Of a stretch of DNA of 64,000 nt, positions 34,654 to 37,283 are shown piece by piece. The translations under genes and the position numbers were made by a program. A model generated the notes under the pieces. The model saw nothing but the letters and a program-made list of their open reading frames with translations. It ran no database searches and was not told the DNA's origin. The stretch's first letter is position 1. Each line of letters begins with the position of its first letter. The stretch covers positions 320,001-384,000 of the forward strand of contig CAWFQL010000012.1 of assembly GCA_963817915.1 (NCBI GenBank), written 5' to 3'. This DNA is from an uncultured candidate division Zixibacteria bacterium. Its GTDB lineage: Bacteria > Zixibacteria > MSB-5A5 > UBA10806.

Positions 34654-34962
34654 CAAATGCCAATCCTCATCACTCGCATCATAGGATACGATGCGTGATG
34701 ATTTCCATAATTATTTTCCATATCATTATATATCGACAAGAAAGTCAGCTTTACTTCGCACTGAAACCATTTTTTTCACTTCAACTCCAGCCATTAGTTG
34801 CATTAAAACGATTTTTTTGATTTGAAATAGCATACCGACTAAATACGCTAATAATTTTCGAATAGTTTCTTTATATTTTGCATTAAAACGGCCGCAAGTT
34901 ACAAAGCCCTCTAAAGACAAAAGGTCCAATGTCGTAAAAATCATAATCCAATAAAATATAGT

Positions 34963-34991
34963 TTGCGGCCATAACCGGTAATGGTTATTAT
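34963..34991 (+). promoter_or_regulatory. Sigma70-like promoter with an internal inverted repeat
   Basis: TTGCGG-N17-TATTAT; ATAACC (34971-34976) and GGTTAT (34983-34988) form an inverted repeat overlapping the -10. Confidence 0.45.
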
Positions 34992-35004
34992 TAAGTCGTG
35001 AGGT

Positions 35005-35112
35005 ATGCTTTACAAAGATCGGAGATATTCAAATCAATTCCGAAATTTTATGGCATATTCAAATTCCGCAGTAATCCTCCATATACCTGACAATAATTCA
35101 TATTGTCCGTGA
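35005..35112 (+). CDS. Putative leader peptide (uORF), 35 aa, ending Cys-Pro-UGA
   Basis: MLYKDRRYSNQFRNFMAYSNSAVILHIPDNNSYCP*; begins just after the predicted promoter; second in-frame ATG at 35050. Confidence 0.4.
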   Translation: MLYKDRRYSNQFRNFMAYSNSAVILHIPDNNSYCP

Positions 35113-35205
35113 GGCAATTTACCCAGAGCCAACGCCATTTAGCGGCGAATTAATTTTTTGCTCAAAATCTTTATCGAGCAGAAATGGCTATCACGGTAAA
35201 TCTGG
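35107..35205 (+). ncRNA. Putative structured cis-regulatory RNA with alternative pairings
   Basis: Nested stems ATTTACC/GGTAAAT, GCCATTT/AAATGGC, TGCTC/GAGCA; competing CCGTGA/TCACGG. Confidence 0.45.
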
Positions 35206-35253
35206 CTTATAGCTTTCGTCAGTTTTAGCAAAAATAGAAATTTGGAGGAATAC

Positions 35254-36537
35254 ATGTCTGATTATCAGCAAATGTGGCAGGAGCTCGGACTTGACCTGGG
35301 GATGCACGACGCATTGCTTGGAGGGCTTGGGCAGGCCTATCAAAACATATACTTAACTCAGAAAAATCGACCTGAAGGCATGAAATATTTTGATTTCGTG
35401 GTGAGCGAAGTGCATGGATTAAGAGTGAAAGAATTGAGAGATGCCCAAAAGCAGGGACGCAAGATAATTGGCTCATTTTGTACATTCGTACCCGAAGAGC
35501 TTGTATTGGCAGTCGATGGTATTTCGGTCGGTCTTTGTACTGGCGCCGAGTTCGGCTTCGAAGAGGCAGAAAAATATCTACCGAAAAATACCTGCGCCCT
35601 GATCAAGGCAACATTCGGTTTCAAGCTCTCCAAAGTCTGCCCCTATATAGAGACAGTGGACATGCTTGTGGGTGAGAATACGTGTGACGGCAAGAAGAAA
35701 TCCTACGAAATTCTGAATACTCTCGTGAAAAATCTATATGTAATGGATCTTCCTCAGATGAAATCAGTCGAGGGTTTGGCGTTGCTAAAAGCAGAATATA
35801 AGAAGTTTATGAGAAAACTCGAACAGATTTCCGGAAAGGCTATTGACTTTGCTGGCCTCAAGAAAGGAATTGAGATTGCCAATAATAAACGGAAGGCGAT
35901 GCACAGGCTCGCGCGGCTCCGCTCAGCGGATCCGGCGCCGATAAGCGGTCTCGATGCTCTTTTGATCAATCAAGTGTTTTTCTACGACGATCCAGCTCGC
36001 TTCACTCAATCCGTAAACAACATATGCGATGAAATCGAGAATAGAATTAAATCAGGGCAGGGCGTTTTCCCCTCGAACACACCCCGGATTCTCTTGTCAG
36101 GCTGTCCGATGGCCGTGCCCAATTGGAAAGTCCCTTATATCATTGAAAATACTGGAGCGGTTGTTGTGGGCGAGGAATCCTGTGTCGGCGAGCGAGGCAC
36201 GCGCAATCTTGTTTCCAATTCCGGCAATACAATCGATGAGCTCCTCGATAACATAGTGAGTCGATATTTTGAAATCGATTGCGCCATATTCACTCCCAAC
36301 GCTTCCAGGCAAGATCATATTAGAGAAATGGCAAAAAATTATGGCGCCGACGGCGTTATTCATTATTGCCTTCAATTCTGCCAGCCCTACCAAATCGAAA
36401 GCGGTATTGTAGAGAAATCGTTGGAGAAGGATAAAATTCCCGTGCTGCGCCTGGAAACCGATTATAGTCAGGAAGATGCAGGGCAGATCAAGACTCGAGT
36501 CGAAGCCTTCGTAGAAAGAATCGGAAGCAGAAAATGA
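35254..36537 (+). CDS. Double-cubane [8Fe-9S] cluster reductase (DCCP; HgdB/YjiM-like family)
   Basis: NRPEGMKYFD, HGLRVKEL; six Cys motifs FCTF, NTCAL, TCDGKKK, ESCVGER, DCAIFTPN, QFCQPY; ends QIKTRVEAFVE; GGAGG SD before ATG 35254. Confidence 0.9.
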   Translation: MSDYQQMWQELGLDLGMHDALLGGLGQAYQNIYLTQKNRPEGMKYFDFVVSEVHGLRVKELRDAQKQGRKIIGSFCTFVPEELVLAVDGISVGLCTGAEFGFEEAEKYLPKNTCALIKATFGFKLSKVCPYIETVDMLVGENTCDGKKKSYEILNTLVKNLYVMDLPQMKSVEGLALLKAEYKKFMRKLEQISGKAIDFAGLKKGIEIANNKRKAMHRLARLRSADPAPISGLDALLINQVFFYDDPARFTQSVNNICDEIENRIKSGQGVFPSNTPRILLSGCPMAVPNWKVPYIIENTGAVVVGEESCVGERGTRNLVSNSGNTIDELLDNIVSRYFEIDCAIFTPNASRQDHIREMAKNYGADGVIHYCLQFCQPYQIESGIVEKSLEKDKIPVLRLETDYSQEDAGQIKTRVEAFVERIGSRK

Positions 36538-37283
36538 TTTCTGTGGGAGTCGATATAGGTTCAAGAACTGTGAAACTGGCCGTTATAGACAACGGCCAGT
36601 TGACCATTGCATCGAAACGAGAAAATACATTCGATCCTATGGCGGTTTGCCGCGAAATGCTTGATGGCGTTGATTATGATATAATTACGGCAACCGGCTA
36701 TGGACGGCATCTATTCGCGGGCCAATTTGCATGCAAAGTCATCAGCGAAATAAAAGCGTTCAGCCTGGGAGCAATAGCCGGAATCCCCACATGCAGAACA
36801 ATCCTCGATATCGGCGGACAGGATATGAAGGTGATTTCGCTTGATGATCGCAGCAACGTTGTCAAATTCGAAATGAACGACAAATGCTCCGCCGGCACCG
36901 GCCGTTTCCTGGAGATAATGGCGATGATTTTAGGTTGCGATCTGAATCATTTTGGGGCTGTTGCTCTTTCCGCGGCCAAAGCTGAAAAAATTAATAGTAC
37001 CTGTACTGTCTTCGCGGAATCGGAAGTAGTATCAATGTTGTCGCGGGGGGCGAGCCGGGAAGATATCGCCTTGGGTATTCATAATTCGATAGTTGGCCGC
37101 GCCAGATCTATGCTGGGAAGAGTAGCTCTGGAAGATGATTTGGTTTTCGTGGGCGGAGTTGCCTTGAATCTATGCGTATCTCAGCTTCTCGGTGATTCGC
37201 TAAAAAGAAAAATAATCACGCCCGATGCTCCCCAGCTTATTGGAGCCTATGGATGTGCTTTATACGGTGTTGAAGATAAATAA
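36534..37283 (+). CDS. ASKHA-type ATP-dependent [4Fe-4S] activator (DCCP-R/HgdC-like)
   Basis: GVDIGSRTVK, ATGYGR, DIGGQD, MNDKCSAGTGRF, CTVFAESE; ATGA overlap with DCCP. Confidence 0.93.
   Translation: MISVGVDIGSRTVKLAVIDNGQLTIASKRENTFDPMAVCREMLDGVDYDIITATGYGRHLFAGQFACKVISEIKAFSLGAIAGIPTCRTILDIGGQDMKVISLDDRSNVVKFEMNDKCSAGTGRFLEIMAMILGCDLNHFGAVALSAAKAEKINSTCTVFAESEVVSMLSRGASREDIALGIHNSIVGRARSMLGRVALEDDLVFVGGVALNLCVSQLLGDSLKRKIITPDAPQLIGAYGCALYGVEDK

Follow-up and report, generated by a model that had tools for sequence, protein, structure and literature searches.

The DNA analysed is a 64,000-nt stretch of contig CAWFQL010000012.1 (hereafter the window), from an uncultured Zixibacteria bacterium whose genome is referred to below as G000. 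On its forward strand lies a gene for a double-cubane cluster reductase (DCCP) of 427 aa (positions 35254–36537), which scored 470.8 bits with NF040772 (cut-off 350). It is followed on the same strand by a gene for an ATP-dependent activase (36534–37283; TIGR00241, 224 bits, cut-off 125.4), the start of which overlaps the DCCP stop by 4 nt. The reductase has seven cysteines (residues 76, 95, 114, 144, 310, 343 and 376), whose spacing is near the published one, although inexact, and no UGA is present in frame within its gene. The Shine-Dalgarno sequence TGGAGGA and the ATG of the reductase occupy positions 35243–35256 of the forward strand. A divergent operon of the mlaE type begins at 34656, and no tRNA was found when the window was scanned.

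A sigma70-type promoter (TTGCGG-17-TATTAT, 34963–34991, forward strand) is predicted from the sequence upstream of the reductase. The strings on which the original prediction was built, namely this promoter, a 35-aa ORF ending in Cys-Pro-stop and ten stem halves, are all present where it placed them. The promoter was not flagged by a consensus scan (8 of 12 matches), but it gained support from conservation, since a TT(G/T)NNN-16/18-TANNNT box was found 5–7 nt 5' of the upstream ORF (uORF) start in 11 of the 12 members of the family described below, the twelfth being masked by N. No Rfam family matched at its gathering score anywhere in the window, and the matches obtained between 34600 and 35400 were at chance level (E 4.5–9.9); the original prediction, too, had not recognised the element as a named riboswitch.

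The intergenic region was compared by blastn with 160 DCCP loci (80 genomic and 80 metagenomic, in each case the top 80 out of over 550). One shared block was obtained, spanning positions 35073–35118, in loci L102, L172 and L057. The spacer between CCTGAC and TTGTCCGTGAGG differs in length among these loci, and therefore the 35-aa Cys-Pro frame (35005–35112, forward strand) is broken in the homologs. The frame that survives reads AAT CCT CCA TAT ACC TGA, that is, NPPYT followed by a stop. In the window this frame belongs to a uORF located at 34998–35096 of the forward strand (VRYALQRSEIFKSIPKFYGIFKFRSNPPYT-U-Q*), which begins with a GTG only 6 nt past the -10 box and is probably leaderless; the 11 homologs start at the same place, all of them with ATG. 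Thirty codons are followed by UGA (35088–35090, forward strand; the predicted selenocysteine codon), CAA and the exit stop TAA (35094–35096, forward strand). The predicted product is a 32-residue peptide that ends two codons past the UGA and has neither a Cys homolog nor an evident enzyme function.

The pattern PYT-UGA-N10-20-GTCCGTG was then run on 285 genomes of the phylum, where it gave 10 sites in 9 genomes, as compared with 2 for the reversed control. Six of the 10 sites precede a DCCP gene and four a short YedF-like gene, with no other gene represented. A family of 12 distinct members was assembled, including the window, L102 and L172 (L057 is the same as L210, and L167 the same as L205, each pair being counted once); the divergent L070 and L022 were excluded. 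Eight members lie upstream of DCCP genes and four upstream of short YedF-like genes, three of which were scanned and scored above the TIGR03527 cut-off (3/3). Several of the shared features fall outside the search pattern. Codon -5 encodes Asn or Asp and codon -4 Pro in all 12 members, the latter with all four Pro codons in use, and the base after the UGA is invariably C (12/12; the UGA itself, unlike this C, was part of the pattern), the next residue being Arg in ten members, Gln in one and His in one. The exit stop is TAA in every member and never lies more than 5 codons past the UGA (+2 in 9/12, +5 in 3/12), while the leaders are all 26–30 codons long. The C-terminal (N/D)PPYT next to the UGA is kept at the protein level, with varying third codon positions. 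Neither blastn nor nhmmer gave a second copy of the intergenic region in G000; one match (C9:144758) sits inside unrelated sequence and was rejected. A scan of the same genome for promoter, uORF and hairpin returned 10 candidates over the three stop codons, and the family features were present in the window leader only.

The UGA is followed by a SECIS-type hairpin (ATTGTC-CGTGA-GGCAAT, 35102–35118, forward strand), which begins 11 nt past it. As in the SECIS of E. coli fdhF, which has the same 11-nt spacing, there is an in-frame UGA and a G within the first two loop positions; here, unlike fdhF, a peptide of only 32 residues is encoded, with its stop two codons past the Sec position. The loop starts 17–22 nt past the UGA in 12/12 members, a gap of 10–20 nt having been part of the search pattern. 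In the alignment of the family, 91% of the stem cells are paired, with 7 one-sided and 0 two-sided changes; column shuffles were not exceeded, and L211 is out of register. The hairpin is missing from most minimum-free-energy folds of the free RNA. The requirements for Sec decoding by bacterial SECIS elements within genes are treated in PMC9312934.

Evidence for Sec decoding in this organism was sought in the rest of the genome. The genes selC, selD, selA and selB are clustered at G000:C6:198041-202492, all above cut-off. A motif scan of G000 gave 11 read-through candidates; two of them were checked against Pfam and corresponded to a thioredoxin (W-U-G-A-C) and to Rdx (C-G-L-U), both with the UGA at the position of an active-site Cys. 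In these two genes the hairpin loop starts 17–21 nt past the UGA. The loop of the thioredoxin gene (G000:C6:121118, minus strand) is CGUGA, identical to that of the leader, and the one of Rdx is GGTCA, as in many leaders of the wider class described below. The selD gene also contains an in-frame UGA, with a hairpin loop unlike that of the leader. An earlier read-through scan of G000, with 473 candidates, was set aside as too noisy. In-frame stops were looked for in the FlpD/MvhD and Fdh-alpha-like matches of G000 and none was found, nor was YedF detected in this genome by TIGR03527. Across the phylum selA is present in 264 of 285 genomes, and it scored above cut-off in 73 of 80 DCCP genomes. 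Because selA is almost universal, its co-occurrence with the leader element (17 of the 18 element-bearing genomes) carries little information. In one element-bearing genome (L100/G363) neither selA nor selC was found.

Comparison of the sequences establishes the reading frame with its UGA, the hairpin behind it and the UAA at which it exits, and also that the NPP codons are complementary to the Shine-Dalgarno/AUG of the reductase. It is highly probable (about 85%) that the conserved mini-gene upstream of the double-cubane reductase operon is a selenocysteine-decoding regulatory leader. The original prediction had favoured a different signal, cysteine, read at the penultimate codon of the 35-aa ORF. 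That ORF exists, and TGT CCG TGA is present at the nucleotide level in 11/12 members, but these nine bases are stem and loop of the hairpin, and GTCCGTG also formed part of the search pattern. In the homologs the Cys-Pro frame takes all three offsets (0, 1 and 2) relative to the conserved one, it lacks an in-frame ATG or GTG in 9/12 members, one of the three remaining starts lies only 3 codons before the Cys, and L211 has no stop after Cys-Pro. As the Cys codon arises merely from the sequence that forms the hairpin, in a frame that is not conserved, cysteine sensing is left without support; the 35-aa ORF is judged incidental and the model can be considered largely refuted. The selenocysteine alternative that accompanied it fared better as regards the signal, although the UGA then proposed (35110–35112) belongs to the hairpin loop and the conserved one, at 35088–35090, is in another frame.

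The presence of similar elements upstream of other reductases was analysed with the same DCCP loci. A start was identified in 158 of the 160 loci; 149 offered 200 nt or more of upstream sequence, and removing near-duplicates left 129. In 34 of these 129 upstream regions (drawn, as above, from the top 80 out of over 550, twice) a G-loop hairpin stands 15–21 nt downstream of a uORF that ends in TGA. The corresponding counts were 1 with TAA and 0 with TAG, the opposite strand gave 3, and 30 shuffles averaged 2.8 with a maximum of 7; about 3 of the 34 are thus expected by chance. Locus L172, with its loop at 22 nt, was missed by this criterion. Most of the other leaders of this wider class encode unrelated short peptides and continue for 17–24 more codons after the UGA. 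When DCCP loci of the phylum were chosen by protein alone, uORF, UGA and hairpin were found in 12 of 13 among the matches listed (14 had been picked); 11 of these were flagged by the script and L226 in the survey of 129 regions, whereas in L222 the UGA and hairpin are present and an ATG or GTG start is absent. The TGA apparently inside the DCCP match in G114 proved to be the ordinary stop codon.

One may ask whether the purpose of the small ORF lies in the peptide itself, a short selenopeptide ending in PPYT-U-R that would serve DCCP or YedF as a carrier or store of selenium, and not in regulation. That the five residues preceding Sec are conserved at the protein level would suit such a role, and small proteins with a near-terminal Sec are encoded beside DCCP genes, as reported for SaoC in 10.1101/2022.07.06.499078. 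Against it, the first 20–24 residues are unrelated between members, and the leaders before other DCCP genes are unrelated sequences of 7–17 codons that have only the UGA and the hairpin geometry in common. We consider this explanation highly improbable. The NPPYT leader, conserved, probably regulatory and probably leaderless, with its short exit, would represent a distinct subtype of leader-peptide control with a Sec codon.

To analyse how such a leader might act on the reductase gene, RNA folding was modelled. The codons R-S-N-P-P of the uORF contain a predicted anti-Shine-Dalgarno/anti-AUG (anti-SD; 35068–35081, forward strand; core TCCTCCA, 35075–35081), which in the free RNA forms 13 predicted pairs with 35243–35257 (duplex energy -14.9 kcal/mol). 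A competing hairpin (GACAATA/TATTGTC, 35089–35107, forward strand), predicted in minimum-free-energy folds, would mask the SECIS 5' arm as long as the UGA is not occupied by a ribosome. Downstream, the nested fold described in the original prediction (35109–35210, forward strand) is predicted to bring the anti-SD and the Shine-Dalgarno/AUG of the reductase side by side in the free RNA. The fold of 35100–35215 has -33 kcal/mol with a z of -2.98, and none of 200 shuffles was as good; its inner stems (GCCATTT/AAATGGC, TGCTC/GAGCA and ATTTACC/GGTAAAT), however, showed no meaningful similarity when compared across the 160 DCCP loci. The nested fold includes the anti-SECIS motif TCACGG (35191–35196). 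The pairing of TCACGG with CCGTGA, likewise part of the earlier proposal, has a counterpart in half of the family, where a C[AG][CT]GG complement lies downstream (6/12 members), but the duplex reached p<0.05 against shuffles in 3/12 only, with p 0.19 in the window. The nested fold is thus likely to serve as scaffold and, at the same time, to compete with the SECIS.

The energy required to open the reductase start was calculated with and without a ribosome on the leader. In the model it amounts to 12.2 kcal/mol in the free RNA; placing a ribosome at the UGA lowers it to 5.3–6.2 kcal/mol, and one on the exit UAA opens the start equally well (6.1). When a 30-nt footprint was slid along the window leader, a gain of 6.4–7.5 kcal/mol was obtained only with the A site between -21 and +6, and of 1.5 kcal/mol at most elsewhere. 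Across the family a single footprint gave a gain above 2 kcal/mol in just 4–5 of 12 members, and blocking the whole uORF gave at least 2.7 kcal/mol in 9/12. Cognate anti-SD duplexes exceeded permuted ones with p 0.037, a value obtained among related sequences. When 25 leaders with a long read-through, out of the 34 in the wider class, were folded at equilibrium, no consistent direction emerged (14 vs 11). The output of the leader is probably the anti-SD at 35068–35081, which the original prediction had overlooked. Translational leader-peptide attenuation is known from systems of the ermC/cat type. The earlier proposal of ribosome-mediated attenuation was right in kind, with a translated leader and a switchable RNA, and wrong in its parts, both the frame and the Cys codon.

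Two other forms of output have to be weighed against these data. In the first, transcription would be the regulated step: the place of the ribosome, or the binding of SelB, would choose between SECIS and anti-SECIS and so determine Rho-dependent or intrinsic termination, the anti-SD being incidental to CC-rich proline codons. The occurrence of the anti-SECIS motif in 6/12 members, the strong hairpins that L202, L172 and L206 carry ahead of T-rich runs, and the weakness of the anti-SD in about half of the family would all fit this explanation, and PMC3892789 describes selenium-coupled premature termination within fdhF of Treponema primitia. In the window leader, by contrast, no terminator-like site was found, as the original prediction had already remarked of a classic U-tract terminator, and in the models the 13-pair helix over the Shine-Dalgarno/AUG is opened only by a ribosome near the UGA. 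A transcriptional output is considered unlikely. In the second, the hairpin would be only an operator bound by SelB, with no need for translation, as in the 5' UTR of E. coli selAB. The precedent is described in PMC13449736: the complex of SelB, GTP and Sec-tRNA represses selAB. There the hairpin lies 3 nt from the Shine-Dalgarno sequence, as compared with about 125 nt here, and in the model the reductase start stays closed when the SECIS is imposed on ribosome-free RNA (12.4 vs 12.2 kcal/mol). In addition, the in-frame start, the coding-type conservation and a UGA at decoding distance have all been kept. An operator that dispenses with translation thus appears very unlikely, although the proposed leader would share with selAB a hairpin that reports the supply of Sec-tRNA through SelB; the selAB operator acts by steric repression, whereas the NPPYT leader has a conserved ORF with an in-frame UGA, and its hairpin lies at a great distance from the Shine-Dalgarno sequence.

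For the preferred reading, a Sec-decoding leader with a translational output, the following mechanism is proposed. Transcription would begin near 34998 and a ribosome would initiate at the 5' end of the RNA. On arriving at the UGA it would melt the competing hairpin, leaving the SECIS free to form. With selenium present, SelB-GTP-Sec-tRNA would decode the UGA and the ribosome would exit two codons on, at the UAA, after which the anti-SD would close on the reductase start (OFF). With selenium absent, termination by RF2 would be slowed by the nascent (N/D)PPYT and by the C that follows the UGA, and the stalled ribosome would dwell over the anti-SD, keeping the reductase start open (ON). Since a ribosome on the UGA and one on the UAA both cover the anti-SD, the switch must rest wholly on dwell time. 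We lean, by a small margin of confidence, towards this complete chain, in which the operon is ON when Sec-tRNA is scarce, polarity included.

The stall model requires slow RF2 action at the leader UGA. In E. coli, according to PMC4513850, RF2 terminates efficiently at a UGA-SECIS without Sec-tRNA, and Sec decoding involves a long pause. The strongest objection to the proposed polarity is that, with efficient RF2 and slow recoding as in E. coli, the dwell could run in the opposite direction unless the peptide blocks RF2. Such a block would be supplied by (N/D)PPYT, by the C after the UGA and by a fixed length near that of the ribosome exit tunnel, which holds about 30 residues. If it were not, the same Sec leader would work with opposite kinetics: RF2 would release quickly where Sec-tRNA is lacking, slow SelB decoding would hold the ribosome on the anti-SD, and the operon would be ON when selenium is plentiful. 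Besides the E. coli kinetics, the role in selenium redox or detoxification suggested for YedF (PMC5322559) speaks for this inversion, and folding cannot separate the two polarities. It leaves unexplained, however, the conserved (N/D)PPYT, the C after the UGA, the length of 26–30 codons and the strong UAA right behind the UGA. This inverted polarity seems to us unlikely. The targets fit selenium control and leave the sign of the response unfixed: DCCP is tied to SelD, with 955 of 970 high-scoring DCCPs in assemblies that contain SelD (10.1101/2022.07.06.499078), and YedF is described as SelD-linked in PMC5322559.

A precedent for a peptide that blocks RF2 at UGA is PepNL of E. coli, in which read-through relieves the block (PMC11890864). 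PepNL is likewise a small ORF ending in UGA, and the relief of its arrest by aminoacyl-tRNA read-through is what the stall model requires; it differs in being 14 aa long and in being read through by Trp-tRNA without a SECIS, and the likeness is one of described mechanism, the NPPYT arrest being putative. As a tentative extension, which we hold with less confidence than the stall chain itself, (N/D)PPYT may be a new arrest peptide that blocks RF2 at UGA and yet admits SelB-delivered Sec-tRNA; it would define a selenium-starvation regulon of DCCP-activase and yedF, in which the DCCPs would win selenium from reduced or bound sources.

The proposed leader resembles trpL-type attenuation, as outlined in PMC3892789, in having a short upstream ORF, a ribosome position predicted to set RNA pairing and a charged tRNA as the sensed signal. 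It differs in sensing one UGA that needs SelB and a SECIS instead of a run of sense codons, in appearing leaderless, in the lack of a terminator in the window and in its output, a predicted anti-SD inside the leader. In the fdhF(Sec) polarity of T. primitia (same source), an undecoded UGA-SECIS also alters downstream expression through ribosome coupling; that case lies inside a selenoprotein gene and expression is lowered at low selenium, whereas here a dedicated leader precedes a Sec-free gene. No description of a UGA-SECIS leader ORF gating downstream genes was found in a full-text literature search limited largely to openly accessible papers.

The selenium regulatory network of bacteria is called unclear in PMC5322559, and the double-cubane reductases are described as having no known physiological substrate and as being almost all in SelD genomes (10.1101/2022.07.06.499078). 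A Sec-codon leader, if true, would constitute an RNA-level selenium sensor that needs no transcription factor. Its gating by selenium would predict when double-cubane reductases are expressed, and would open to experiment a possible role of these enzymes in supplying selenium. As a candidate arrest peptide that would discriminate RF2 from Sec-tRNA, the NPPYT subtype would be relevant to the mechanism of termination and to the engineering of Sec insertion. As regards gene context in the wider class, 33 of the 34 regions with the element are free of any long same-strand ORF ending within 120 nt, as compared with 68 of the remaining 95, as would be anticipated if element-bearing genes head operons.

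The genome to which the window belongs (G000) carries a selC-selD-selA-selB cluster on the minus strand of contig C6 (G000:C6:198041-202492; locus L183), in which selC lies immediately upstream of selD and selD itself contains an in-frame UGA within the motif CAG-U-ASK. Two selenoprotein candidates were located in the same genome. One, of 394 aa (G000:C6:121118, minus strand; L215:291-1472), consists of a hydrophobic N-terminal stretch followed by a thioredoxin domain with W-U-G-A-C and by TPR-like repeats, and its hairpin loop is identical to that of the NPPYT leader (CGTGA). The other is a 73-aa Rdx-family candidate with C-G-L-U (G000:C17:553848, plus strand; L216:219-437), the hairpin of which has a GGTCA loop. 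MvhD/FlpD and Fdh-alpha-like proteins belong to families that often contain selenocysteine. The matches to these families in G000 (C12:295557-295925 and C9:127449-129137, respectively) showed no in-frame UGA and both are therefore selenium-free in this genome.

The NPPYT leader was also present at the head of genes for stand-alone proteins of ~115 aa (L206, L208, L209 and L211), whose match to YedF is confined to the DsrE-like C-terminal half. In genome G149 the leader occurs twice, once 5' of DCCP and once 5' of a ~115-aa YedF-like gene. A second leader subfamily, ending in IF(V/I)PL(D/G)-UGA, precedes DCCP in L044, L048, L083, L136, L145, L148, L177 and L181, with a 20-codon read-through, then a strong hairpin plus T-run, and an anti-SD with the sequence GCCTCC. 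L222, which covers the region also represented by L022, contains a UGA, a hairpin with a CGTGCC loop and a short exit stop, without any ATG or GTG in frame with the UGA; this leader may start at TTG or may be decaying. Ten other DCCP upstream regions (L027, L030, L034, L038, L041, L112, L114, L117, L118 and L132) lack a leader and show a gene-proximal promoter, downstream of which a spaced, ATCG-N-CGAT-like motif recurs; this motif, recognized by eye, may be a transcription-factor site in place of the leader.

Inside the spacer of the window promoter, the near-perfect palindrome CCATAACCGGTAATGG (window 34971-34984) is a possible repressor site; its blastn matches elsewhere fell within coding sequence.

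Leader-like elements were found in L100 (genome G363) and L068 (genome G331), and selA was detected in neither genome; the assemblies may be incomplete, or the elements may be leftovers. A tRNA-Sec is present in G331, and none was found in G363. In L025, ARAGORN identified a tRNA-Sec gene directly 5' of DCCP (L025:2843-2935). Loci L077, L129 and L143 contain a tRNA-Sec-like sequence just upstream of DCCP, not called by ARAGORN, which may be either a remnant or a leader shaped like a tRNA.
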